From IMG/VR virus record IMGVR_UViG_2529292906_000017: a DNA stretch of 18,305 bases; one strand, 5' to 3'. The translations under genes were made by a program, and so were the position numbers. Numbering within the stretch: the stretch's first letter is position 1; the number at the start of each line of letters is the position of its first letter. The notes under the pieces are model-generated. The model was not told where the DNA came from. It was given only the letters and a program-made list of their open reading frames with translations, and did not search any database. The DNA comes from a virus. Taxonomy: Duplodnaviria > Heunggongvirae > Uroviricota > Caudoviricetes. Of this stretch, positions 3,883-18,305 are shown one piece after another.

Positions 3883-4190
3883 TACGCAAGCCTCACAATA
3901 TAGTTAAATGCGATGTTTTTGACGGTGTTTTCCGCGTTACCAGCAGCGTTAACGGTGATGGTATGTCCATGTGAACCAATCGCAACGGAGTGCGTATGAG
4001 CACCAATACCGACAGTATGTGCGTGTGCACCTGCGCTTGCAGCAGTACCCGATACAGAGTGCGTATGAGCGCCTGCAGAAGAAGTGTTAACACTGTATTT
4101 AGAATAATCAGGTGATCCACTTCCCGGAGCACCACTGGAACCACCTGAAACAAATGTCATCGAATGGGTATGTGCACCGGCTGTCCCCAT
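3882..4190 (-). pseudogene. stfQ: C-terminal remnant of side tail fiber protein (Stf) with GAHTHS repeats
   Basis: 102-aa ORF with repeated GAHTHS motifs, ending [11 protein letters not shown] as in lambda Stf C-terminus. Only about 100 codons remain; the upstream part is replaced by a J fragment in another frame. Confidence 0.75.
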
Positions 4191-5437
4191 GCATTTACCG
4201 CCCGGACTGTCAGCCTGTAATTTCCCAGCGCCAGCTGCGTGAAGCGATATGTGGTTTCCGTCGTCCGGGCCGTGCTGACCAACCGCTCACTGCCGTCGTC
4301 CGCTGCCACGGTCAGGCGAAGCATAAAGCTCACCCCCTTCACCACCTTCGGCGTGTCCCAGCGCGCCAGCACCTGGTATTCCCCGCTGTCTGCGGTGACT
4401 TCTGCGGTCAGGTGCTGAACTGCTGGCGGCGTGACACCATTCACCGTGCCGCTCTGGTCACCGTCAAAGTGCGCCCCGTTATCCACGATGGCTTCTTTCT
4501 CCGGTACATGCTGCACGGCAGTGATGGCATACGTACCGTCATCGTTCTCACGGATACTCACACAGCGGAACAGGCGCTGACGCAGCGTCGGCAGCTTCAG
4601 CCCCCACACGCTGTACTCGGCAACGCCGTCAGGAACCCGGCTCACTTTCACCTTCACGCCGTCGGTGACGGACTGGACCTCCACGCTCACCGGATTACCC
4701 TGCCCGTCAACCAGGCTTATCAGCGTGGTGCCGGAGGATGGCAGCGTGATTTCACGGTCGAGCGTCAGTGTCCGCGTCTGGCTGTTCACCGCCAGCACGC
4801 GCCCGCCGATGCTGATCCCCGCATAGTCATCATCACAGATTTCAATGACATCACCTGGTACATGGCGAAGCCCTTCGGCACCCACGCTGAAGTCCACGGT
4901 CTGCGTTTCCAGCAGTTCCGTTTTAATCAGCCACAGCCCGGCTCGGTGCGCCTGCCCCCGCCTGGTACAGCCAAAGGCATCCATCTTCGTGACGTTACGA
5001 CCGTAACGGGCAATGGCCTGCGTGTCCTCCACAAGCTCTGTCGCCGTCTCCCAGCCGTTATCCGGGTCAATCCAGTTCACCTCAACGGCATTATGGCGGT
5101 CCTTCAGGGCGCTGAAGCTGTAGCGGAACGGCGCGCCATCATCCGGCATCACCACATTACTGCGGTTATAGGTCCACACCTTATCTGATGGTCGGTCCTG
5201 CACGAACGTCAGCGTCTGCCCGTTCCATACCGGCATACAGCGCATCGCCGAGCAGAAATCACTGAGAACATCCCACGCCTTACGCTGTGTGGTCAGCCAG
5301 GCATTACAGGTGATGCGCGGCTCCGTGCCGCCAAAACCGTCCGGCACCGACTGGTCGCAACACTGGCCGATGACATACAGCGCCCATTTATCCACATCTG
5401 CCGCACCAAGACGTTTACCCATGCCGTAGCGCGGGTG
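4157..5437 (-). pseudogene. Internal fragment of tail tip / host specificity protein J (lambda gpJ-like)
   Basis: Translation from HPRYGMGKRLGAADVDKWALYVIGQ to [11 protein letters not shown] matches lambda J mid-region closely. The first 29 residues of the 455-aa track ORF are an out-of-frame read of Nu1 DNA, and the C-terminus diverges 7 codons before the stop. Confidence 0.8.
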
Positions 5438-5672
5438 GCTGGAGATCTGTCTCGCTGGCCTGCCGCAGTTCTTCAACTTCCCGGCGCAGCTTTTCGTTCT
5501 CAATTTCAGCATCCCTTTCGGCATACCATTTTATGACGGCGGCAGAATCATAAAGCACCTCATTACCCTTGCCACCGCCTCGCAGAACGGGCATTCCCTG
5601 TTCCTGCCAGTTCTGAATGGTACGGATACTCGCACCGAAAATGTCAGCCAGCTGCTTTTTGTTGACTTCCAT
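5415..5672 (-). pseudogene. nohQ: Terminase small subunit Nu1, N-terminal DNA-binding fragment fused into J-derived sequence
   Basis: Translation MEVNKKQLADIFGASIRTIQNWQEQGMPVLRGGGKGNEVLYDSAAVIKWYAERDAEIENEKLRREVEELRQASETDLQP matches lambda Nu1 residues 1-79; homology ends at about 5436 and the frame then reads into J DNA. Confidence 0.8.
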
Positions 5673-5679
5673 TGTTCAT

Positions 5680-5880
5680 TCCACGGACAAAAACAGAGAA
5701 AGGAAACGACAAAGGCCAAAAAGCCCGCTTTCAGCACCTGTCGTTTCCTTTCTTTTCAGGGGGTATTTTAAATAAAAACATTAAGTTACGACGAAGAAGA
5801 ACGGAAACACCTTAAACCGGAAAATTTTCATAAATAGCGAAAACCCGCGAGGTCGCCGCCCCGTAACCTGTCGGATCACC
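5680..5880 (-). other. Lambda-type cos site (cosB, cosN at 5850..5861, cosQ-side flank)
   Basis: Reverse complement of 5673..5861 is GGGCGGCGACCTCGCGGGTTTTCGCTATTTATGAAAATTTTCCGG...GTCCGTGGAATGAACA, i.e. the lambda left end with about 5 substitutions and no indels as I recall it, directly upstream of the Nu1 start. Confidence 0.75.
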
Positions 5881-6060
5881 GGAAAGGACCCGTAAAGTGA
5901 TAATGATTATCATCTACATATCACAACGTGCGTGGAGGCCATCAAACCACGTCAAATAATCAATTATGACGCAGGTATCGTATTAATTGATCTGCATCAA
6001 CTTAACGTAAAAACAACTTCAGACAATACAAATCAGCGACACTGAATACGGGGCAACCTC

Positions 6061-6294
6061 ATGTCAACGAAGAACAGAACCCGCAGAACAACAACCCGCA
6101 ACATCCGCTTTCCTAACCAAATGATTGAACAAATTAACATCGCTCTTGAGCAAAAAGGGTCCGGGAATTTCTCAGCCTGGGTCATTGAAGCCTGCCGCCG
6201 GAGACTGTGCTCAGAAAAAAGAGTTTCTTCTGAAGCAAACAAAGAAAAGAGTGACATTACTGAATTGCTCAGAAAACAGGTCAGACCTGATTGA
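6061..6294 (+). CDS. ynfO: Small ribbon-helix-helix-like prophage protein (77 aa)
   Basis: 77-aa ORF MSTKNRTRRTTTRNIRFPNQMIEQINIALEQKGSGNFSAWVIEACRRRL; basic N-terminus plus beta-strand/helix pattern typical of Arc/CopG-type folds. Symbol from Qin gene order; fold assignment is inference. Confidence 0.6.
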   Translation: MSTKNRTRRTTTRNIRFPNQMIEQINIALEQKGSGNFSAWVIEACRRRLCSEKRVSSEANKEKSDITELLRKQVRPD

Positions 6295-6351
6295 AGCAAT
6301 TTAGATAATCGTGCAGACTACGCCCCCTCATATCACATGGAAGGTTTATCT

Positions 6352-6762
6352 ATGGATCAGGTAGTCATTTTTAAACAAATATTTGATAAAGTTCGAAACG
6401 ATTTAAACTATCAATGGTTTTATTCTGAGCTAAAACGTCACAATGTCTCACATTACATTTACTATTTAGCCACAGAGAATGTTCATATTGTATTAAAAAA
6501 TGATAATACAGTGTTATTAAAGGGCCTAAAAAACATTGTGTCTGTCAAATTTTCAAAGGATAGGCATCTTATAGAAACGACCTCTAATAAGCTGAAATCC
6601 AGAGAGATCACATTTCAGGAATACAGAAGAAACCTTGCTAAAGCAGGAGTTTTTCGGTGGGTTACAAATATCCACGAACAAAAAAGATATTACTATACCT
6701 TTGATAATTCATTACTATTTACTGAAAGCATCCAGAAAACTACACAGATCTTACCACGCTAA
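6352..6762 (+). CDS. ydfO: DUF1398-family prophage protein
   Basis: 136-aa product from the second Met ([30 protein letters not shown]...); the track ORF 6337..6762 adds 5 codons. Placement after ynfO and before gnsB matches Qin order. Confidence 0.7.
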
Positions 6763-6913
6763 ACCATAACGTCCGGCTTCTCTCACTCCTGAGCCGGACT
6801 GCATTGGTTTAATAAAAACCATCAACAATTGTGATTTAGATATTCGGAACCATTCAAATATAACAAAACCCCGTAAAAACGAGGTTTATGGATAAATTTT
6901 ATTATTGAATACA

Positions 6914-7086
6914 TCAGATTAAATTAATCTTGACATCATAGCTTTCAAGACCCGTCATTTTTTCCCGTGCGGTAAACTGAATACTGGTAACTTCTTTCCC
7001 GGTCTTTTTCTTAAGTTCAATAATTTTTTTGTTATATATTCAGAAATATCTGCTTCTGCTTTTGTTTTTAAGTTTTCAATATTCAT
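6914..7086 (-). pseudogene. gnsB: GnsA/GnsB-family protein with an apparent 1-bp contraction in a homopolymer
   Basis: From ATG at 7084..7086 the frame gives MNIENLKTKAEADISEYITKK and stops at 38 aa. A second frame reads IIELKKKTGKEVTSIQFTAREKMTGLESYDVKINLI to stop 6914..6916. They join into a 57-aa GnsB only if the T7 run 7024..7030 were T8. Confidence 0.65.
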
Positions 7087-7257
7087 CATTTCCTCTTTTA
7101 GTCTGTTATGACTTTCCAGTTACACAGTAAGTCGATTATATGGTGCAAACGTGTAAAAGATAAGATGAAACATCGCAATAATCAACATACGATAGTCTAA
7201 ATTTTACACAAACAGACAAAGAGAATTTTCCTGAATTATCAATGCAATAGCATCAAA

Positions 7258-7412
7258 TCAACTCAAGAGCCTTATTGCTGCTTCCAGAATTTCTTCTGAA
7301 GTAACATGTCGATCCGCGGCTACATAAATGACTTTATGATCTCCGGTCAGAGATGGAAACCCTGCGGCCATTACAGTAAGGTGTGTTTTTCGCCATTTGG
7401 ATATTCACGCAT
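7258..7412 (-). pseudogene. ynfN: YnfN-like cold-shock-induced small protein with an apparent 1-bp contraction in a homopolymer
   Basis: ATG at 7410..7412 gives MREYPNGEKHTLL then stop. With one extra A in the run 7386..7390 the frame reads MREYPNGEKTHLTVMAAGFPSLTGDHKVIYVAADRHVTSEEILEAAIRLLS (51 aa), stop 7258..7260. Confidence 0.5.
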
Positions 7413-7529
7413 GATGGTGTTAACTCCAGTCATCGCTGGCACTACCACTGCTGGTTCAGAGTTAAAAAAACTATGATTTTTTCATGATGTTACCGTAGTA
7501 TGTGAGTATCCATCGAATAGACACCAAGC

Positions 7530-7560
7530 AAAAAAGCTCCCGAAGGAGCCTTCATTTTCA
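7530..7560. terminator. Hairpin with flanking A and T runs (possible bidirectional terminator downstream of cspI)
   Basis: AAAAAAGCTCC-CGAA-GGAGCC followed by TTCATTTTCACTTTTTT; on the minus strand the stem is followed by TTTTTTGC. Confidence 0.4.
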
Positions 7561-7756
7561 CTTTTTTAAATCCAACGACAGACGGCTGGCATTTAAGTAT
7601 TGTGAAATATTATCAAATGTAATCATCATTGATTTACAAAAGATACATTTTGCCCCGAAAGGATTCATGTCAGAAACATCAAAAGATGATGTTCTATACT
7701 GGGAACCATGACAACACGGGCATCTAAAGTGAATATGGTTTGTAATATTGTCTACC

Positions 7757-7969
7757 TCAAAGCGCCACTACATGAACAGCGGCAGGACCTTTAGGTCCGT
7801 TCTCAATACCAAATTCAACTTCCTGATTCTCAGTTAATGTTTTGAAATCGTTGCTCTGAATTGCTGAGAAATGGACAAACACATCTTTGCTGCCATCTTT
7901 CGGCGTGATGAAACCAAAACCTTTTTCAGGGTTAAACCATTTCACTAAACCAGTCATTTTGTTAGACAT
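7757..7969 (-). CDS. cspI: CspA-family cold shock protein
   Basis: 70-aa [41 protein letters not shown] with RNP1/RNP2-like motifs (KGFGFI, VFVHF). Confidence 0.9.
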
Positions 7970-8330
7970 AATTATTACCTTTTGAAGAAATTAGCCCTTG
8001 GGCAGAATGGTCCGAAAAAAATATCAGAGAGAAAAACCAACAAGGAAATCTCAAGAGGTACAAATAATAAAATTATAACAATGACTGCTTCAGATAAATT
8101 TGTAACAAACCAGAACACCATTAACGCATGATTAACCACCCATAGCAAGGATTACTTTTGTAAAGAAAAACACAGCAATGAAAGAATAGCTTTATTTATT
8201 AATAAAACGTGTCATTCTGATTAAGACCTTTTATCTTACCCTTAAGATTTCAGGAATTTTGGCTCATGGAAGAGTCCTTTTTATTTAAATTTTACATTCC
8301 GCGATGTAAATGTTCCGATTTAATATTACC

Positions 8331-9353
<1,023 letters not shown>

Positions 9354-9357
<4 letters not shown>

Positions 9358-9665
9358 AGATATTTATGATGAGGACGCTCGTGCTTATTGGCAGGATTTT
9401 CAATCTTAAAGGAGTACTGATGCTGCAGATAAGACTCAACTTTTTCTGACAATTTTTCTGCTACTTCCAGGAAGACTTGCCGGACGCTCCTTCTGGCTGC
9501 TGCCTCATAAAACTCCAGCGCAGCTCCTTCAACACGGTCCATGGCGACATCCAGGTCAAAAATTTCACCGTCAAAGCGTTCTTTGTCCTGTAAGGCTACA
9601 GTTACCGTAACTTTATTCTCAAAATTACGGACTCCTTTCACAACCAGTTCATAGTCTTGAGTCAT
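9354..9665 (-). CDS. ydfR: DUF1327-family prophage protein located between holin and endolysin
   Basis: 103-aa ORF MTQDYELVVKGVRNFENKVTVTVALQDKERFDGEIF...; 4-bp overlap with the endolysin start. Function unknown. Confidence 0.7.
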
Positions 9666-9669
9666 TGGA

Positions 9670-9885
9670 TTACTCTCCTCTCGCAGCCTTACGCCTGTCT
9701 TCTTTAATCTTGAAATAAAGATTTGTCAGATACGTCAGCAGGCCAAAAACCAGGCTACCCAGCACACCGATTGCAGCCCACTGTGACGGAGTTACTTTAT
9801 CGAGTAACTGCAATGCCCAGAAACCAGCATTACCCGCCGATGTGCCATAGGCAACACCTGTTGTTAACTTATCCATTGATTTCAT
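9670..9885 (-). CDS. essQ: Class II holin (phage 21 S-like pinholin) with dual-start motif
   Basis: 71-aa product [71 protein letters not shown]; two TM helices, Met1/Met4 dual start, charged C-terminus. The track ORF 9670..9960 extends upstream. Confidence 0.85.
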
Positions 9886-10104
9886 ATCCTCACCCCGATG
9901 TACACGGATGGTGCAATATGTTTGAAAAGATCGGAGTCTACGGGGTAGTTTTGACAGCACACGTTGTTCTCAACGGCGCTAAAAAAACATACACATTAAA
10001 AATGTGGGTAATTATTTTGAAAGAAAGTCATATATAAAATAATAATACGAGAAATGTTTTCATATTTAGTGTACTGTATACGGCCATTTATACAGGAAAA
10101 GCCT

Positions 10105-10275
10105 ATGTCAGAACGTAAAAACTCAAAATCACGCCGTAATTATCTCGTTAAATGTTCCTGCCCAAACTGCACCCAAGAGTCAGAACACAGTTTTTCAAGA
10201 GTACAAAAAGGTGCCCTTTTGATCTGCCCTCATTGCAACAAAGTATTCCAGACAAATCTTAAAGCTGTAGCCTGA
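10105..10275 (+). CDS. Small zinc-ribbon-like protein (56 aa), unassigned
   Basis: ATG at 10105 preceded by AGGAAAAG; MSERKNSKSRRNYLVKCSCPNCTQESEHSFSRVQKGALLICPHCNKVFQTNLKAVA has CxxC...CxxC spacing. The track ORF starts upstream at 10054. Confidence 0.45.
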   Translation: MSERKNSKSRRNYLVKCSCPNCTQESEHSFSRVQKGALLICPHCNKVFQTNLKAVA

Positions 10276-10333
10276 TTGATTTTATTAGTAACAAGTATTT
10301 TTTATATTTTAATAATATATTTAAAGCAGATAA

Positions 10334-10362
10334 TAAAAAACCCGCCTGAGCGGGTTTGAGAT
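10334..10362. terminator. Rho-independent terminator-like hairpin (stronger on the minus strand)
   Basis: AAAAAA-CCCGC-CTGA-GCGGG-TTT; reverse complement gives stem plus T6. Confidence 0.45.
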
Positions 10363-10517
10363 TGTGGTGCTTTTTGTGGGAGTCATCCACTTACGCACTT
10401 TGTTTTGCCATGCCAGCAGTTAGCTTCTGCTGTAAAACTATTCATGCAGCAAACCTGCACTTCACCACAATGGTTAGCATACTTTTCCTGATTAAGATTT
10501 TGGGTAATGACTCCAAC

Positions 10518-10895
10518 TTATTGATAGTGTTTTATGTTCAGATAATGCCCGATGACTTTGTCATGCAGCTCCACCGATTTTGAGAACGACAGCGACTTCC
10601 GTCCCAGCCGTGCCAGGTGCTGCCTCAGATTCAGGTTATGCCGCTCAATTCGCTGCGTATATCGCTTGCTGATTACGTGCAGCTTTCCCTTCAGGCGGGA
10701 TTCATACAGCGGCCAGCCATCCGTCATCCATATCACCACGTCAAAGGGTGACAGCAGGCTCATAAGACGCCCCAGCGTCGCCATAGTGCGTTCACCGAAT
10801 ACGTGCGCAACAACCGTCTTCCGGAGCCTGTCATACGCGTAAAACAGCCAGCGCTGGCGCGATTTAGCCCCGACGTATCCCCACTGTTCGTCCAT
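10518..10895 (-). CDS. insB: IS1 InsB transposase domain (InsAB' C-terminal part)
   Basis: [65 protein letters not shown]... matches IS1 InsB. Confidence 0.8.
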
Positions 10896-10914
10896 TTCCG
10901 CGCAGACGATGACG

Positions 10915-11214
10915 TCACTGCCCGGCTGTATGCGCGAGGTTACCGACTGCGGCCTGAGTTTTTAAATGGCGGAAAATCGTGTTGAGGCCAACGCCCATAA
11001 TGCGGGCAGTTGCCCGGCATCCAACGCCATTCATGGCCATATCAATGATTTTCTGGTGCGTACCGGGCTGAGAGGCGGTGTAAGTGAACTGTAGTTGCCA
11101 TGTTTTACGGCAGTGAGAGCAGAGATAGCGCTGATGTCCGGCAGTGCTTTTGCCGTTACGCACCACGCCTTCAGTAGCGGAGCAGGAAGGACATCTGATG
11201 GAAATGGAAGCCAC
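10915..11214 (-). CDS. insA: IS1 InsA with altered C-terminus from a shortened A-run at the frameshift site
   Basis: [43 protein letters not shown]... is InsA (zinc finger plus HTH), but the ORF ends ...[18 protein letters not shown] (99 aa) instead of ...RHLKNSGRSR (91 aa) because TTTAAAAACTC has A5 where IS1 has A6C. Confidence 0.8.
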
Positions 11215-11413
11215 GCAAGCACCTTAAAATCACCATCATACACTAAATCAGTAAGTTGGCAGCATTACCAGATTTTGCCAAATATGCTAGCCATTGTTTC
11301 ATGTATTGGACCTCCTTACTTTTTATTAAAGAGATCCAATATTCACTACTCTGTCCGTATCTCTACTCAGGCATCAGCCTTCTTCGTTATCGTATACAGA
11401 CGAGCGATGAATT

Positions 11414-11629
11414 TTAATCAGTAATGATGACATTTGCTGCTGCAGGACCTTTAGCACCACTCTCTATAGAGAAGGTAACCTTTTGACCTTCAAATAAGGT
11501 TCGATAATTATCATTCTGAATCGCAGAAAAATGCACAAACACATCTTTACTACCATCAACAGGAGAAATAAAGCCGAAACCTTTATCAGCGTTAAACCAT
11601 TTTACTAAACCAGTCATTTTATTTGACAT
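11414..11629 (-). CDS. cspB: CspA-family cold shock protein
   Basis: 71-aa [41 protein letters not shown]..., paralogous to the ORF at 7757..7969. Confidence 0.9.
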
Positions 11630-11929
11630 TCTACATTCCTTAACTTGAGCCTTTCGGCATAAATGGTTTGCATAACAGAAACGACTTCGTACTTAATTGG
11701 AGAGACTCAAAGAAGGAATAAGTGAATAACACCTGAAATGAGAACTGCTTTAGTAAACTACTTCGTATATCGTCTGTTCTTCAAACCGACGCAATCATTA
11801 ACGCATAGTTGAACATATGAAGCAATGTTTATTTTAGACATCCAGCCATCTTCAACCCCATCAAAAAACTATAGCTTTCTTCAGGAACGTGTGTATAGTG
11901 CGCCAAGTTATCAGTATTAAGGAATTTTT

Positions 11930-12142
11930 TTGTCCCGTAAAATGACAGGAATTATCAAAACCTTTGACGGCAAAAGCGGCAAGGGTCTTATCACCCCATC
12001 CGATGGTCGTATCGATGTCCAGCTTCATGTTTCAGCGCTCAATCTCCGCGATGCAGAAGAAATTACCACCGGATTACGCGTGGAATTTTGCCGGATAAAT
12101 GGTCTGCGTGGCCCTTCAGCTGCCAATGTTTACCTTTCATGA
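11930..12142 (+). CDS. cspF: CspA-family cold shock protein paralog, apparent TTG start
   Basis: 70-aa ORF (M)[43 protein letters not shown]...; first codon at 11930 is TTG, with AAGGA upstream. Confidence 0.8.
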
Positions 12143-12196
12143 GCTATATTAAAGCTTTAATTTCAGGCCCCATCGGATCACACATGGAGAGTTTTT

Positions 12197-12286
12197 ATGA
12201 ATAACCCCGTCTGTCTTGATGACTGGTTGATTGGCTTTAAAAGCTTATGCTGTACTTTGGCCGTAATAGCTCTGCTAATAATATAA
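12197..12286 (+). CDS. Candidate small membrane peptide (29 aa), unassigned
   Basis: ATG at 12197 preceded by GGAGAG; [29 protein letters not shown] has a hydrophobic C-terminus. Very short; could be chance. Confidence 0.2.
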
Positions 12287-12440
12287 TAAGCAGACTCATT
12301 GTGTTTAGGGACATTGTACTGGAAGAAAACATTTTAAACATCAGGCAAATAACCAAGTCACCAGCTAAATAATAAGTTAACAGACATGAGTCCCGGGATG
12401 AGATTCAACATTACCATTGCCCCATTTAAAGCACAAAACC

Positions 12441-12464
12441 CGCTCATCAGCGGGTTTTCTACTT
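12441..12464 (-). terminator. Terminator hairpin about 100 nt downstream of the Q gene (tR'-like)
   Basis: AAACCCGCT-CATC-AGCGGGTTTT with T-rich tails on both strands. Confidence 0.5.
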
Positions 12465-12502
12465 TTTCTTAACGTCGGGTATACAAAGCCCATCGTTGAA
12501 AA

Positions 12503-12531
12503 ATTTTATCCATATTTTTTGAAAAATGCAA
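12503..12531 (-). promoter_or_regulatory. Putative Q-dependent late promoter (pR'-like)
   Basis: On the minus strand TTGCAT (12526..12531), a 17-nt spacer, then TAAAAT (12503..12508), immediately downstream of the Q stop and upstream of the terminator hairpin. Arrangement resembles lambdoid pR'-tR'. Confidence 0.35.
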
Positions 12532-12562
12532 ACATCATGTCGCCATCTTCAGCAAAAATCAT

Positions 12563-13315
12563 TTATCTCGTCACCTTCCTCAATTGCGCTTCCGCGTATG
12601 CTTCTTCCTGCCAGCACTTTGTTACCAGTTTACCAATGACGTCCGCATACCCCTTATACCACTGATAATCGGTCAGGTCTGGTACCAGCTTCTGGACATG
12701 ACGTCGTGCCAGCGTGGTCGGTAAACGACTAAACCGGTTTCCATTACAACGCCCACAAATCTTATATACCGGTACGCCATGAAACCGGGTTCTTTTTTCA
12801 TCCAGAACAATCCCTTTACCCTTACACCCTCTGCACGCTGTGCTGGCTTCGCCCTTACCATGGCAATGCTGACATAGTTCCTTCACCCATTCTTCCTTGA
12901 TTACAGATTCCCCGCGTCTGTAGTGTTTCACCACTTCGCGCAATACATTATAAAATCCCGTACCTGAACAATGCTCACAGCGAGCCTTACTTGCCGCAGA
13001 CCTGGAGTAATCAGCAAAGGCAAAACTCACGAGGTAAGGAATAATCTGTAACCGGATTTCTTCACTCAATTTGTTCAATGTCGGGTTATCCAGTGCCATC
13101 GCGTAATTTAGCAGGCCTTCAATCGCAAACTGAGGGTCCTGAACACCAACTTTTGCCAGAAATAAGGCCAACCCAAGTGGTGCTTTCGACTGCACCATCC
13201 CCTGCGCTGCCATTACATCCGTAATTGTTAAACAACCGGTGCCTGTCGCTGGAGCGTCATCGCTCAATTTTGGAGATTTTGGGGAGTAATATTTTGGTAA
13301 GGCTTCAAGGTTCAT
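12563..13315 (-). CDS. quuQ: Late-gene antiterminator Q (phage 82-type)
   Basis: 250 aa from MNLEALPKYY...; Cys-rich zinc-binding region CEHCSGTGF...CQHCHGKGE...CRGCKGKG...CGRCNGN. The track ORF 12563..13345 adds 10 upstream codons. Confidence 0.85.
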   Translation of the reverse strand: MNLEALPKYYSPKSPKLSDDAPATGTGCLTITDVMAAQGMVQSKAPLGLALFLAKVGVQDPQFAIEGLLNYAMALDNPTLNKLSEEIRLQIIPYLVSFAFADYSRSAASKARCEHCSGTGFYNVLREVVKHYRRGESVIKEEWVKELCQHCHGKGEASTACRGCKGKGIVLDEKRTRFHGVPVYKICGRCNGNRFSRLPTTLARRHVQKLVPDLTDYQWYKGYADVIGKLVTKCWQEEAYAEAQLRKVTR

Positions 13316-13328
13316 GCTCGTTCTCCAC

Positions 13329-14417
13329 TTACGCCAGTACGCCAATTGCCAGCGCGCGATCGATAAAACGAAATATCAGCTCCAGTTGGGAGCCATACTT
13401 ATCTTCAAATGCCACTGTATCCGTATGCAGCTCGTTGTGATGCTTTCTGCACAAAGGCAACACAAAGAGATCATGTGCTTTTGTTCCCATTCCGCCCTGC
13501 CCGTGACCAATCAGATGATGCGGATCGTCGGCTGGCATACCGCAGCAAGCACACGGCTGTGTCTTAACCCAACGTGTGTATTTCTCCTTAACCCAGCGGC
13601 GACGTTTAGGCAGCTTCATGAAAGATTCCGGAGACTCTGGATCAACGGTGATGCTTACCACCGTCTTTTCCTGTGGTGATTTTTGTTGCTGGTGGGCGTA
13701 AGGCAACGGTGCAAGATTTTTTGTGCGTTGTTTCAATATGCTGGTGGCGGTCTGCTCTCCCGGTACGATGTCGCTTTCGCGGTACACCGAGCAGATTTTT
13801 TCCGCTGGTAATCCCAGCGAACGACGCGATACAGCCTCAGGTAGTGCATCCACCACCTGATTGCAGACCGCCCACCAGGATAATTCAGCCAAAGATAATT
13901 CCCGCTCCTGCGTACCGCTTATTGCGTGACGGATGACGTCAATCACCCATGCTGTCAGATTTTGTTGAGCAAGCAGCTCCAGTGATTCCGATGTCTGGTC
14001 ACGCAGTTGGTTGTCGCAGTGCCAGCACAACACCATTGCGCCGGTACCATAACGGTGAATGACTGTTTCAGTGTGATGGTAATCGCCATTAGGCCACTGG
14101 CAGGATGTAACATGACGTAATAGCCAGTCGGACAATGCGCCAACGCCGCCAGCAGCACGAATCACCCGTTCGTTACTAAAAAACGGCAGCAATGTTTTGT
14201 CTTCCGCCAGCGGCTGGCGAACGGCAGGAACGACTCCGGATGGCAGATTACGCATGCTTTTTGGTTCCGGTTCCACCAGCACTCGAGGATTATGAAATAT
14301 CTGTATGGATTCACGGCCCGGCTTAAGGACCACCAGCCCAAGCTCAGGCACCAGAACAGGTCTAAGTAATACCCGCACGTTACCTCCAGATCCGTTGCTG
14401 GAAAGTGCGGGACGCAC
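13329..14417 (-). CDS. ydfU: DUF968-family prophage protein with Cys/His cluster
   Basis: 362-aa track ORF; C-terminal region TQPCACCGMPADDPHHLIGHGQGGMGTKAHDLFVLPLCRKHHNELH suggests a metal-binding (HNH-like) motif. True start uncertain (Met1 or Met55). Confidence 0.7.
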   Translation of the reverse strand: MRPALSSNGSGGNVRVLLRPVLVPELGLVVLKPGRESIQIFHNPRVLVEPEPKSMRNLPSGVVPAVRQPLAEDKTLLPFFSNERVIRAAGGVGALSDWLLRHVTSCQWPNGDYHHTETVIHRYGTGAMVLCWHCDNQLRDQTSESLELLAQQNLTAWVIDVIRHAISGTQERELSLAELSWWAVCNQVVDALPEAVSRRSLGLPAEKICSVYRESDIVPGEQTATSILKQRTKNLAPLPYAHQQQKSPQEKTVVSITVDPESPESFMKLPKRRRWVKEKYTRWVKTQPCACCGMPADDPHHLIGHGQGGMGTKAHDLFVLPLCRKHHNELHTDTVAFEDKYGSQLELIFRFIDRALAIGVLA

Positions 14418-14658
14418 GTGGTGGGCGTTCGGAATAAGGCAGCCTGACAGAGATTATCCAGTGCCGATAGTCGAGACTGAGAGCTTTCTTAACCTCGAAC
14501 CCGCGCCTGCGGTAAGAATGAATCAGCCATTCGGCCTGTTCTGCAGTGCATGGAGGGTGCTGGAACCATTCAGACTTGAATGCGTGAGAATACCGCCCGT
14601 GCGTGCAGGCAAGAACGGGCGAATTATCAGAATTGTAATATTTTGCGTTGCGTGCCAT
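14380..14658 (-). CDS. Hypothetical 92-aa protein overlapping the ydfU start, unassigned
   Basis: ATG preceded by GGAGAAAAC; MARNAKYYNSDNSPVLACTHGRYSHAFKSEWFQHPPCTAEQAEW... contains a C-x-H...H...C arrangement. Overlaps ydfU by 38 nt in a different frame. Confidence 0.4.
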   Translation of the reverse strand: MARNAKYYNSDNSPVLACTHGRYSHAFKSEWFQHPPCTAEQAEWLIHSYRRRGFEVKKALSLDYRHWIISVRLPYSERPPRASRTFQQRIWR

Positions 14659-14724
14659 CGGTTTTCTCCGGTGGCACGGTGTTACTCAGCGGGAGTTCAG
14701 CCCCGCGCAAGATTGTAGATGAGT

Positions 14725-14976
14725 TTATTCTCCTGAAAAAGCAGAAAAGCCAGCTTTTATTCCGATCTCTTTCAATGCCTGTAATGAAGTGACAAACTCA
14801 CCTTCGCGCAAGATAAATCCGTCCGTGACCCGAGCATCCACAAAATTAATTAACGCAGCCCCATTCTTTCGCAAACACATAATGCGGTAATGACTAACAA
14901 GATTTCCATTTTCAACGCACACAGCATAGAGGCCATCTTCACAAAAAATTTTACGCAGTTCTTCGATGTTCATCAT
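14725..14976 (-). CDS. rem: Rem-like 83-aa prophage protein
   Basis: 83-aa ORF MMNIEELRKIFCEDGLYAVCVENGNLVSHYRIMCLRKNGAALINFVDAR... between ydfU and hokD; symbol assigned from position and length only. Confidence 0.45.
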   Translation of the reverse strand: MMNIEELRKIFCEDGLYAVCVENGNLVSHYRIMCLRKNGAALINFVDARVTDGFILREGEFVTSLQALKEIGIKAGFSAFSGE

Positions 14977-15087
14977 CAGAATCCTTCCGGATAATTAGCT
15001 CTCCCCTTTAAGGGACCATCCCTCTTATCCCTGCGCGCTACTTAAGTATTTTTGATTCTATTCCGGCACCGTCCAGAACTTCAAACG

Positions 15088-15121
15088 CGTTGAAAATAAA
15101 AACAAAAACCCGCCGAAGCGG
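15088..15121 (-). terminator. Rho-independent terminator downstream of hokD
   Basis: Minus strand reads AACCCGC-TTCG-GCGGG followed by TTTTTGTTTTTATTTT; lies 70 nt past the hokD stop. Confidence 0.55.
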
Positions 15122-15192
15122 GTTAAGTGCGGGTGCGTTGAGGATGCCTGCCACATCAGAGGTGGCGAGGGATTTCTCCCCCGCCGGGTCTC

Positions 15193-15348
15193 TTACTCCT
15201 CAGGTTCGTAAGCTGTGAAGACAGCGACCTCCGTCTGGCCGGTTCGGATTCGTACCTCGCAGAGGTCTTTCCTCGTTACCAGTGCCGTCACTATGACGGT
15301 TAAACAGATGACGATCAGGGCGATTAACATCGCCTTTTGCTGCTTCAT
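15193..15348 (-). CDS. hokD: Hok-family type I toxin
   Basis: Reverse-complement translation MKQQKAMLIALIVICLTVIVTALVTRKDLCEVRIRTGQTEVAVFTAYEPEE (51 aa), GGAG upstream; not in the ORF track (under 60 aa). Confidence 0.85.
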   Translation of the reverse strand: MKQQKAMLIALIVICLTVIVTALVTRKDLCEVRIRTGQTEVAVFTAYEPEE

Positions 15349-15419
15349 AGCCTGCTTCTCCTGTCAACGCAAAGCAGAAGTGTCACCTTCGGTGCGAAAC
15401 AGAGATGTCATGCTTTGGT

Positions 15420-15707
15420 TCAGAGAATGCGTTTGACCGCCTCGCTATATACTTCCGAGCGTTCTCTTTTCCCAACAGAAATCACGAAAACGACAACTTT
15501 CTCGTCTATAACCTGGTATACAAGGCGATAGCCTGAAGACCGGAGCTTAATCTTGTAACAATCAGGCATACCACGGAGCTTGTTTGCTTCAATCCGGGGT
15601 GACTCAAGTACTTCAACCAGCTTCTTTTTCAACTGTTCACGTACCGTCGAGCCCAGCTTTCGCCATTCCTTTAGTGCCCGCTCGTCAAAATCCAGAAAAT
15701 ACGCCAT
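15420..15707 (-). CDS. relE: RelE mRNA interferase toxin (type II TA)
   Basis: 95-aa ORF MAYFLDFDERALKEWRKLGSTVREQLKKKLVEVLESPRIEANKLRGMPDCYKIKLRSSGYRLVYQVIDEKVVVFVISVGKRE. Confidence 0.9.
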   Translation of the reverse strand: MAYFLDFDERALKEWRKLGSTVREQLKKKLVEVLESPRIEANKLRGMPDCYKIKLRSSGYRLVYQVIDEKVVVFVISVGKRERSEVYSEAVKRIL

Positions 15708-15946
15708 CAGAGTTCATCCAGCGTCACACGTACTGGCTTAGGATTACGAAGCCGTTCTTTCACTATCTCCACAAGTTCAGCATCTTCATCACTCAGGAGT
15801 GTCTGTTTGAACGGCAAGCGTTCATTGTCAGCGATATACTCGAGCATGAGACGAAGCGCTTCAGAAGGAGTTACACCCATTTTTTCAAGCGCGGCGTAAG
15901 AACGCGCTTTAAGTTCATCGTCAATACGCAGGTTAATGCTACCCAT
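15707..15946 (-). CDS. relB: RelB antitoxin (ribbon-helix-helix)
   Basis: 79-aa ORF MGSINLRIDDELKARSYAALEKMGVTPSEALRLMLEYIADNERLPF...; 1-bp overlap with the relE start. Confidence 0.9.
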   Translation of the reverse strand: MGSINLRIDDELKARSYAALEKMGVTPSEALRLMLEYIADNERLPFKQTLLSDEDAELVEIVKERLRNPKPVRVTLDEL

Positions 15947-15957
15947 GTCTTACACCT

Positions 15958-15983
15958 CTTGTAATTACAAATGTCATTACAAG
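15958..15983 (-). promoter_or_regulatory. relBE operator (relO-like inverted repeat) at the relB promoter
   Basis: CTTGTAATTACAAATGTCATTACAAG contains inverted TTGTAAT/ATTACAA repeats immediately upstream of the relB SD (AGAGGTG). Confidence 0.6.
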
Positions 15984-16149
15984 TATCGCACTACAACATG
16001 CTTAGGGCAAGTCACGAAGGAAGTCAGAAAGTAGTCGTAAGAACGGTGATCACTGTCCGCTTTGTGCCAGGAGCAGCCATTGCTAAGTCCATCCTGTATT
16101 GTGCAGGTCAGCTCGTTTTTAAAGAGTCCGGCCATCATCTTACTGGTAC

Positions 16150-17037
16150 AGACACCATATACTTTGTGACGGTCTGAATCGCCACGGATAATCTAGACAC
16201 TTCCGAGCCGTTGATAATACTGGTTTTCATATTCTGTCGGTGACATCTGATCGCTGGAACCATGCCGACGCTTACTGTTATAAAACATTTCGATGTAATC
16301 AAAAATATCGCTGCGGGCTTCTTCCCGCGTTCCGTAGATCTTTTTCTTTATCCGTTCACGTTTCAACAACTGGAAAAAACTTTCTGCAACCGCATTATCA
16401 TGGCAGTTACCGCGACGGCTCATGCTACCCTCCAGGCCGTGTGATTTCAGGAACGACTGCCACTCATGGCTTGTGTACTGACTGCCCTGATCCGAATGAA
16501 CCAGCACCTTTTTTTCGGGATTACGCCGCCATACAGCCATCAGCAGTGCGTTCAGGACAATGTCCTTTGTCATCCGGGATTGCATGGACCAGCCGATAAT
16601 TTTGCGTGAGAACAGATCAACAACAACGGCAAGATACAGCCAGCCTTCGTGGGTCCTGATGTAGGTTATGTCCGTTACCCAACGCTCATCAGGAGCATCC
16701 GGATTGAACTGTCGCTGGAGCCTGTTGGGTGACACGATACTGGCCTCGCCTTTACGTGCCCGCGGGCTTCGGTATCCGACCTGAGCCTTTATTCCGACAC
16801 GTTTCATCAGTCTCCAGACTCTGTTTACTCCGCACTGTTGCCCGCTGTCACGCAGATCCAGATGGATTTTGCGATAACCATAGACGCATCCCGATTCCAG
16901 CCAGAACTGTTTAATCTGTCCTGTCAGTCTCAGGTCTGCCTGATGGCGTTGTGAATGCGGCTGCTGAAGCCAGGCGTAAAAACCACTGGGATGAACATCC
17001 AGCACCCGACAGAGCAGGCGAACAGGCCAGCAACAGG
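16150..17037 (-). mobile_element. IS600-like IS3-family element, truncated where the next IS begins; outer boundary approximate
   Basis: Contains a complete orfB; its reading frame continues open upstream to 17037, where the TGAACCGCCCCGG terminus of the next IS begins, so orfA and the other end lie outside the window. Confidence 0.7.
16193..17005 (-). CDS. IS3-family transposase OrfB (IS600-like), DDE integrase domain
   Basis: 270-aa ORF (GTG start) with ...WVTDITYIRTHEGWLYLAVVVDLFSRKIIGW...HSDQGSQYTS...CHDNAVAESFF, the DDE motif region of IS3-family transposases. Confidence 0.85.
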   Translation of the reverse strand: MLDVHPSGFYAWLQQPHSQRHQADLRLTGQIKQFWLESGCVYGYRKIHLDLRDSGQQCGVNRVWRLMKRVGIKAQVGYRSPRARKGEASIVSPNRLQRQFNPDAPDERWVTDITYIRTHEGWLYLAVVVDLFSRKIIGWSMQSRMTKDIVLNALLMAVWRRNPEKKVLVHSDQGSQYTSHEWQSFLKSHGLEGSMSRRGNCHDNAVAESFFQLLKRERIKKKIYGTREEARSDIFDYIEMFYNSKRRHGSSDQMSPTEYENQYYQRLGSV

Positions 17038-17091
17038 TGAACCGCCCCGGAAATCCTGGAGACTAAACTCCCTGAGAAAGAGGTAAACAGG

Positions 17092-17418
17092 ATGACTAAA
17101 AATACTCGTTTTTCCCCCGAAGTCCGTCAGCGGGCGATTCGTATGGTTCTGGAAAGTCAGGATGAATATGACTCACAGTGGGCGGCAATTTGTTCCATTG
17201 CCCCAAAGATTGGCTGTACGCCGGAGACTCTGCGTGTCTGGGTTCGCCAGCATGAGCGGGATACCGGGGGCGGTGATGGTGGGCTCACCACCGCTGAACG
17301 TCAGCGTCTGAAAGAGCTGGAACGTGAAAATCGTGAACTGCGCCGCAGTAACGATATCCTTCGCCAGGCTTCCGCTTATTTTGCGAAGGCGGAGTTCGAC
17401 CGCCTCTGGAAAAAATGA
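17092..17418 (+). CDS. IS3-family transposase OrfA (HTH plus leucine zipper)
   Basis: 108-aa [60 protein letters not shown]...[27 protein letters not shown]. Confidence 0.85.
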
Positions 17419-18305
17419 TGCCACTGCTGGATAAGCTGCGTGAGCAGTACGGGGTCGGACCGGTATGCAGCGAACTGCATATTGCCCCGTCAACGTATTA
17501 CCATTGTCAGCAACAGCGACATCATCCGGATAAACGCAGTGCCCGTGCGCAGCACGACGACTGGCTGAAGAGAGAGATACAGCGCGTATACGATGAAAAT
17601 CATCAGGTGTACGGTGTGCGTAAAGTCTGGCGTCAGTTGTTACGGGAAGGAATCAGGGTGGCCAGATGTACAGTGGCGCGCCTCATGGCGGTTATGGGAC
17701 TTGCCGGTGTTCTCCGGGGTAAAAAGGTCCGCACTACCGTCAGCCGGAAAACCGTTGCCACAGGTGACCGCGTAAACCGTCAGTTCGTGGCAGAACGTCC
17801 TGACCAGCTGTGGGTGGCTGATTTTACTTACGTCAGCACATGGCAGGGCTTCGTCTATGTGGCGTTTATCATTGATGTGTTTGCCGGATACATCGTGGGG
17901 TGGCGGGTCTCATCGTCTATGGAAACGACATTCGTGCTGGATGCGCTGGAGCAGGCGTTGTGGGCCCGTCGTCCGTCTGGCACCATCCATCACAGCGATA
18001 AAGGCTCTCAGTATGTGTCACTGGCCTATACGGAGCGACTAAAAGAAGCCGGATTACTGGCATCAACAGGGAGTACAGGCGACTCGTATGACAACGCGAT
18101 GGCTGAGAGCATCAATGGTCTTTACAAAGCGGAGGTAATACACCGTAAGAGCTGGAAAAACCGTGCAGAAGTGGAACTGGCCACACTAACGTGGGTGGAC
18201 TGGTATAACAATCGACGATTGCTGGGAAGGCTGGGCCATACTCCTCCGGCAGAAGCAGAAAAAGCTTATTATGCTTCCATCGGAAACGATGATCTGGCAG
18301 CCTGA
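17415..18305 (+). CDS. IS3-family transposase OrfB (IS629-like), DDE integrase domain
   Basis: 296-aa ORF with ...[31 protein letters not shown]...[10 protein letters not shown]...[16 protein letters not shown]. Confidence 0.85.

Follow-up and report, generated by a model that had tools for sequence, protein, structure and literature searches.

The two insertion sequences at the right end of the window (the whole 18,305-nucleotide stretch of DNA analysed here) most probably form an IS-associated deletion joint, at which the cryptic prophage Qin has lost about 5.5 kb, and not a current nested insertion of one element within the other. Two transposase units of the IS3 family meet at 17037/17038. 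The left-hand unit, element A, is a truncated remnant, whereas the right-hand unit, element B, is complete once it is followed past the end of the window. The features of the window are listed below with their coordinates and, where it applies, the strand.

4071-5435: replaced segment, the first exception to collinearity with K-12
10503-11269: IS1, the second exception to collinearity with K-12
right end: the IS pair (A and B), the third exception to collinearity with K-12
15420-15946: relE and relB, 100% identical to K-12
15971-16174, plus strand: 5′ fragment of ydfV (its first 204 bp), interrupted by element A and 100% identical to K-12
16175-17037, minus strand: element A, a dead ISEhe3-type remnant of the IS3 family that keeps the right-end 863 of 1229 bp
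16175-16212, minus strand: right terminal inverted repeat of A (TGAATCGCCACGGATAATCTAGACACTTCCGAGCCGTT), the same end as in the full copy of E. coli HS
16193-17037, minus strand: remnant of A orfB (DDE/rve transposase), with its stop codon at 16193-16195 and open to the junction
17038-18305, plus strand: element B, of IS629/IS1203 type and the IS3 family, the first 1268 of 1310 bp
17038-17062, plus strand: left terminal inverted repeat of B (TGAACCGCCCCGGAAATCCTGGAGA), read from the two ends of the element
17092-17418, plus strand: B orfA, 108 aa, helix-turn-helix (HTH), from the ORF list and a profile search
17373-17489, plus strand: ALIL pseudoknot of B, which stimulates −1 frameshifting where orfA and orfB overlap (Rfam RF01497)
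17415-18305, plus strand: B orfB, 296 aa, DDE/rve transposase (NF033516, 315.7 bits)

The window covers the ydfJ-to-ydfV part of Qin, a cryptic prophage, in an E. coli, and it is collinear with K-12 MG1655 1,631,002-1,646,100 at 98.5-99.9% identity, apart from the three exceptions listed. Positions 15000-16174 are 100% identical to K-12 1,644,926-1,646,100, and the match stops inside ydfV (1,645,897-1,646,202). The ydfV fragment, together with a TGA contributed by the terminus of A (16175-16177), makes up a chimeric ORF of 68 codons. Gene calls for this 68-aa product, part ydfV and part IS, exist on 16 draft contigs, of which the eight listed all end at the IS boundary, and the matches are, therefore, silent on what lies at the far side of the IS. 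The sequence-only reading had proposed a Shigella-like or non-K-12 E. coli background for this DNA, and the second of these was borne out by the contig AIFV01000014.1 of the assembly GCA_000249595.2 (see below), for which protein names point to DEC6 strains.

Element A starts at 16175, given that collinearity with ydfV ends at 16174 and a terminal inverted repeat beginning TGAATCGCCACGG starts at the next position. An IS3-family element abutting B had been recognized earlier, as found here, but its start had been placed at 16150. A full-length relative of 1229 bp is present in E. coli HS (locus L002:2011-3239), where it is bounded by 38-nt terminal inverted repeats that begin TGAATCGCCACGG and whose arms are 74% complementary. 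The window copy is 99.4% identical to positions 1-863 of the HS copy (counted from the right end) over 863 bp, an agreement that we regard as no chance pattern. The full-length relatives have overlapping ORFs, a −1 frameshift site and the 38-nt inverted repeats; in the transposase orientation, orfA occupies nt 64-342, an A7G slippery run is found at nt 303-310, and the orfB frame extends from nt 225 to nt 1211. Of these, the right repeat and the part of orfB that begins at nt 367 are present in the window. Nt 1-366 are missing, so that the window copy has no left inverted repeat, no orfA and no frameshift site, and A is now inert.

The breakpoint of A, after nt 366, lies 24 nt beyond the stop codon of orfA and 56 nt beyond the slippery site. 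It is thus near the orfA/orfB overlap and not in it, so that the earlier placement of the break at this overlap was right about the neighborhood of the frameshift region but wrong about the overlap itself. The orfB frame of A, on the other hand, is open right up to the 17038 junction just as had been described, because the minus-strand frame contains no stop codon from 16196 to 17041; the first possible start, a GTG at 17005, gives a 270-aa ORF. The transposase of A matches the NCBIfam profile NF033516 with 353.8 bits over profile positions 101-369 of 369, which places it in the IS3 family. The cut-off of this profile is 160 bits, and its three matches at the IS pair score 353.8, 43.5 and 315.7 bits.

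By ISfinder convention, elements that agree at the isoform level share roughly 90% or more of their nucleotides and 95% or more of their amino acids. In its full-length form, A has 88.8% nucleotide identity, and its OrfB 93% identity, to a copy in Shigella phage SfIV (KC814930) that carries the depositors' label ISEhe3, and we call A ISEhe3-type on these values, which are borderline between the same IS and a sister element. The label came to us from a phage collection, through SfIV. The SfIV element (1228 bp) resembles the full-length relatives of A (1229 bp) in its orfA/orfB layout, and it shares the terminal repeat with A, 53 of 56 positions being identical at the right end; the window copy differs in that it is merely the right-hand 863 bp. 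Cluster names and the PGAP and Bakta labels for A read either "IS3 family transposase" or, wrongly, "insF IS3", and no IS3 element of 1229 bp turned up in a literature search.

The first element had previously been read as IS600-like. IS600 and A are alike in that both belong to the IS3 family, with a two-ORF frameshifted transposase and the DDE (rve) transposase in orfB. However, A shows 39% amino acid identity over 275 residues to the product annotated as "IS600 ORF2" in pCP301 of Shigella flexneri, and blastn of A against both IS600 copies in 50 kb of pCP301 detected no similarity. The termini of A (TGAATCGCCACGG) also differ from those of IS600, and its full copies are 1229 bp long. This falls far short of near-identity; there is practically no likelihood that A is IS600 or a near relation of it, and the name ISEhe3-type replaces the earlier one.

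Element B starts at 17038 with the left terminus TGAACCGCC, and its two ends read TGAACCGCCCCGG...CCGGGGCGGTTCA. The sequence-only reading had taken the sequence at 17038 for an IS terminus, and it is indeed the true left terminus of a 1310-bp element of IS629/IS1203 type. The full 1310 bp was recovered from AIFV01000014.1 (locus L017, 5968-4659), in which the right end, ...CCCGGGGCGGTTCA, is reached 42 bp beyond the window. The left repeat TGAACCGCCCCGGAAATCCTGGAGA and the reverse complement of the right end (TGAACCGCCCCGGGTTTCCTGGAGA) match at 22 of 25 positions. The exact orfA protein of B is widespread in E. coli and Shigella. The orfB frame overlaps orfA by ATGA, and the last bases of the window are the orfB stop codon. 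The ALIL pseudoknot at the overlap scored 121.5 bits against Rfam RF01497 (gathering score 50; E = 1.7e-32), with a full-length match from 1 to 117.

Over 1310 bp, B shares 94.7-95.0% of its nucleotides with the copies in Shigella flexneri pCP301 that their authors labelled IS629, and we take an identity of 95% over this length to be no chance pattern. A copy labelled by PGAP "IS3-like element IS1203 family" is closer, with 99.2% identity. B shares with the IS629/IS1203/IS3411 group the length of 1310 bp, the termini, an orfA of 108 aa and an orfB of 296 aa, and it is nearer the IS1203-labelled copies than Shigella IS629, the names in this comparison being those of deposited labels and not of ISfinder references. 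Its length, its termini, its identity to named copies and the ALIL at the ATGA overlap put B in the IS629/IS1203 group, and the assignment of the second element as IS629-type, made earlier, stands. B looks intact: its two inverted repeats, orfA, orfB and the ALIL pseudoknot are all present, and as judged from these features it retains everything needed for transposition. Unlike 14 of the 20 other copies examined, this copy of B has no 3-bp target duplication.

The sequence past the window was obtained by looking up the product of the 270-aa ORF of A, which led to AIFV01000014.1. This draft contig of 12.8 kb is 100% identical to window positions 10193-18305 (8.1 kb), runs on for 4.7 kb past the window and is the single available sequence that continues beyond 18305. 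B ends at position 4659 of the contig, and from the next base onward the contig corresponds to K-12 1,651,591-1,656,247 with 99.9% identity. To the right of B are the interior of the intQ′ pseudogene and then rspB, rspA, ynfA, ynfB and speG. B is preceded by CAACAGG and followed by GTGTTTTC, so that the 3 bp at its two sides (AGG on the left and GTG on the right) do not form a duplication. The absence of the duplication speaks against B having arrived here by simple insertion, but not against its membership in the IS629/IS1203 group.

The two flanks map to K-12 1,646,100 and 1,651,591, and the 5,490 bp of Qin between these positions is absent from the contig. The missing DNA includes the 3′ end of ydfV, flxA, ydfW, ydfX, dicC, dicA, ydfA, ydfB and ydfC, and also dicF, dicB, ydfD, ydfE′, the IS2E remnant and the first 79 bp of intQ′. 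Flanks that are non-adjacent in K-12, the absence of the intervening DNA and the lack of a duplication are what characterizes an IS-associated deletion joint, and in this case all three are seen in one draft contig. Complete genomes of E. coli and plasmids were screened for the two junctions of B and for that between ydfV and A, and no record was found to carry the joins; the matches were two-piece only, at different insertion points. Exact-pattern scans of genome, metagenome and viral collections for the A/B, ydfV/A and B/intQ joins gave zero matches.

According to the sequence-only reading, the second element had inserted into the first, and extension past 18305 should uncover the right end of the second element, a 3-bp duplication and the other half of the first element. 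The IS629-type right end was found 42 bp on, but neither the duplication nor the missing half is there. In all 12.8 kb of the contig, the full-length A query found a match for its positions 1-863 only, and the remainder of A was not found in the 4.6 kb beyond B. That reading had itself named sequence beyond the window with no remainder of the first element as the observation that would speak against it, and this is what the contig holds: A 1-863, B and then intQ′.

Other copies of these elements show what a nest looks like. In the fetched loci, perfect 3-bp duplications border 14 of the 20 other full-length copies of B, including two in GCA_000249595.2 (the set came from a look-up of the 295-aa form of orfB; the 296-aa form gave unrelated loci only). 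True nests were also encountered. One has the order A(1-884), B, A(881-917), IS30, A(916-1229), with a GCG duplication (L014), and another has B inside IS30 inside A (L015). In plasmid pLKSZ04, B is inserted at A-746 and the rest of A follows; the nested A::B of the plasmid locus L001 has both A halves and a GTC duplication. These arrays (A::B, A::IS30 and A::IS30::B) are built from the same two or three elements, but the host element is still there in its two halves, together with the 3-bp duplication, whereas the window locus has one half and no duplication, and thus does not have the structure of a nest. A simple nested insertion in which the duplication and the rest of A lie just past the window would be in keeping with the way B inserts into A-type elements elsewhere (L014, L001) and with a junction near the frameshift region of A. 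Given that the DNA 42 bp past the window is intQ′ and not A, that there is no duplication and that no A sequence occurs in the following 4.6 kb, it is highly unlikely. It is contradicted by the contig, and could be rescued only if the contig were misassembled. An ancestral nested insertion is possible as a first step toward the present structure, as distinct from the structure itself.

One could envision such a misassembly as a repeat collapse, in which a B truly nested in A and a second B located in intQ, both real, were merged, and the remainder of A and the flxA-ydfE segment were left on another contig. If so, the nested insertion of the sequence-only reading would be correct after all. B, a repeat of 1310 bp, is present at least five times in GCA_000249595.2, and three of these five copies are without duplications, which could reflect either many real rearrangements or mis-joins through the repeat. 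Each of the eight listed draft contigs with the ydfV/A junction terminates at the boundary of the IS, which indicates that short reads do not span these repeats, and the join, which past 18305 is represented by one draft contig, is confirmed by no closed genome. Against this stand other copies of B in the same assembly that lie inside long contigs with correct duplications (TCT in L036 and CAG in L039). Furthermore, swapped joins would be expected to pair up, but the flanks of the three copies without duplications are unpaired (AGG, AGG and AAC on the left; CCC, GTG and CCC on the right). Comparable truncations of A beside other IS elements are, moreover, real in closed genomes, one example being the finished chromosome of S43, in which the order is ydfV, A::IS30, rspA. 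We consider an assembly artefact improbable.

How the deletion joint came about is a separate question, and among the routes we favor recombination between two copies of B over a one-ended deletion, while granting other routes a very small share of the probability. The two-copy route, which we put forward tentatively as the leading candidate, would begin with an ISEhe3-type element A inserted in ydfV of Qin. One copy of B would have become nested in A, duplicating AGG, and a second copy would have inserted in intQ, duplicating GTG, with both copies directly oriented. RecA-type homologous recombination between the two copies would then have eliminated the 5,490 bp of Qin along with the left 366 bp of A. 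The single B left behind would have its left flank from the copy in A and its right flank from the copy in intQ. In the present structure B links nt 863 of A, as numbered from the right end, directly with sequence from inside the intQ pseudogene. In the collections searched, no intact A in ydfV was found, nor B in intQ with a GTG duplication, nor B at A-863 with an AGG duplication, and exact-pattern scans of the genome, metagenome and viral collections for the hypothetical intermediate joins (B to AGG-A, and intQ-GTG to B) gave zero matches. Because no intermediate state was encountered, the route is one that we infer. A mosaic pattern in B, derived from two subtypes, was not found; however, B differs from its commonest relatives by one base, so that this test is uninformative on recombination. 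IS629 is known as a source of genomic deletions in E. coli O157, and many gene inactivations have also been attributed to it (PMC9943667). By analogy, the window locus may belong with the O157-type deletions, in that it has an IS629-type element at the joint, missing prophage DNA and non-matching flanks.

Alternatively, a single B, nested in A or located in intQ, might have given rise to an adjacent deletion from one of its termini, a possibility to which we assign less weight than to the two-copy route. The cause could conceivably be aberrant ("sloppy") strand transfer or breakage by the element's own transposase, followed by microhomology end-joining repair, as with IS629 and the IS-excision enhancer (IEE). 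The arrangement AGG, B, GTG fits a one-ended event, which would leave half of the initial duplication on one side of B and new sequence on the other. A second copy of B in the same genome also has a non-matching flank, where it cuts off an IS30 after 55 bp (L012). IEE-dependent events include deletions adjacent to IS629 that range from a few nucleotides to more than 40 kb (PMC9943667), and a model for them has been discussed (bioRxiv 10.1101/2023.06.07.543989). Those IEE-linked deletions, however, mostly go with loss of the IS, whereas B is kept intact here and the locus has no excision joint. In addition, the IS3 family's copy-out-paste-in mode of transposition regenerates the donor and does not by itself predict a flanking deletion in which the IS is retained (bioRxiv 10.1101/2023.06.07.543989), and for this reason the one-ended route is placed second to two-copy recombination.

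The locus should be annotated as a truncated ISEhe3-type remnant and an intact IS629/IS1203-type element at a 5.5-kb Qin deletion, and not as IS629 nested in IS600. The scar, a deletion in a cryptic prophage associated with an IS, is ordinary and of a known kind, and it poses no challenge to what is understood of IS biology. An absent 3-bp duplication serves as a quick diagnostic that separates a secondary IS rearrangement from a simple or nested insertion. Qin in this lineage is without the dicA/dicC immunity region, the dicB and dicF cell-division inhibitors and flxA, and it retains relBE and hokD.

Copies of the IS629/IS1203 type abut or interrupt A-type elements at no fewer than four positions (A-463, 746, 863 and 884). 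IS30 is found in A-type elements at the same point, 916/917, in both orientations and at unrelated chromosomal loci, and it is a possibility that an A::IS30 composite is mobilized as a unit, in trans. The ydfV-to-rspA event of S43 is independent of the deletion in the window. One hypothesis, which we regard as speculative, is that ISEhe3-type elements are recurrent landing pads for other insertion sequences. If this is true, then IS-in-IS nests would seed prophage and chromosomal deletions, of which the window locus and the ydfV-to-rspA event of S43 would be examples.

When the window was aligned to the Qin prophage of K-12 (MG1655 reference coordinates), two differences were found outside the ydfV region, each of which involves a feature listed here.

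4157-5524: 455-aa ORF overlapping a replaced segment (4071-5435), matching the middle of lambda TipJ
10503-11269: IS1 insertion between ynfU and cspB, insA and insB ORFs on the minus strand

The segment 4071-5435 has no alignment to K-12 Qin and stands in place of K-12 1,635,074-1,636,130 (the stfQ/nohA area). Because the 455-aa ORF matches the mid-part of the profile of the lambda tail-tip protein TipJ (positions 279-699 of 1163), it is a tail-gene fragment. The IS1 is absent from K-12, and the K-12 coordinates of its flanks share an 8-bp overlap (1,641,195-1,641,202), which is consistent with an IS1 target duplication.

The following features, in the window and at other loci, concern the ISEhe3-type element that cuts ydfV in the window and the IS629/IS1203-type element that follows it.

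Window 15971-16177: 68-codon chimeric ORF, the ydfV N-terminus with a TGA stop supplied by the terminal repeat of the ISEhe3-type element
L012 (GCA_000249595.2, AIFV01000023.1) 4551-6831: second scar in the genome that also carries the window locus, with ISEhe3-type positions 1-917 (counted from the right end), the last 55 bp of IS30, the IS629/IS1203-type element and a truncated AAA-ATPase gene, in that order
L025 (E. coli S43, NZ_CP010237.1) 7022-11183: ISEhe3-type element with IS30; ydfV is intact and ends roughly 200 bp before it, with rspA directly next on the other side

The name that public records give to the orfB of such elements, "transposase insF for insertion sequence IS3A/B/C/D/E/fA", misleads, because the element is of the ISEhe3 type and is not IS3.

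In the L012 scar, the IS629/IS1203-type element again lacks a 3-bp duplication, as it does in L041 of the same assembly. In L013, L014, L015, L019 and L025, IS30 splits the ISEhe3-type element at the identical point, which is position 916/917 and lies a short way upstream of the slippery run. The split recurs at unrelated chromosomal loci and with IS30 in both orientations, which suggests either that the site is an IS30 hot spot or that the composite has been mobilised. In the finished S43 genome, rspA directly follows the composite, and thus flxA through rspB are missing there; this arrangement is an event independent of that in the window, in the same neighbourhood.

The chimeric ORF is a gene call in several assemblies, on 16 draft contigs altogether, and in all eight places shown the contig breaks off at the IS boundary. 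Judging from this distribution, the junction between ydfV and the ISEhe3-type element is the mark of a lineage and not of one isolate alone.
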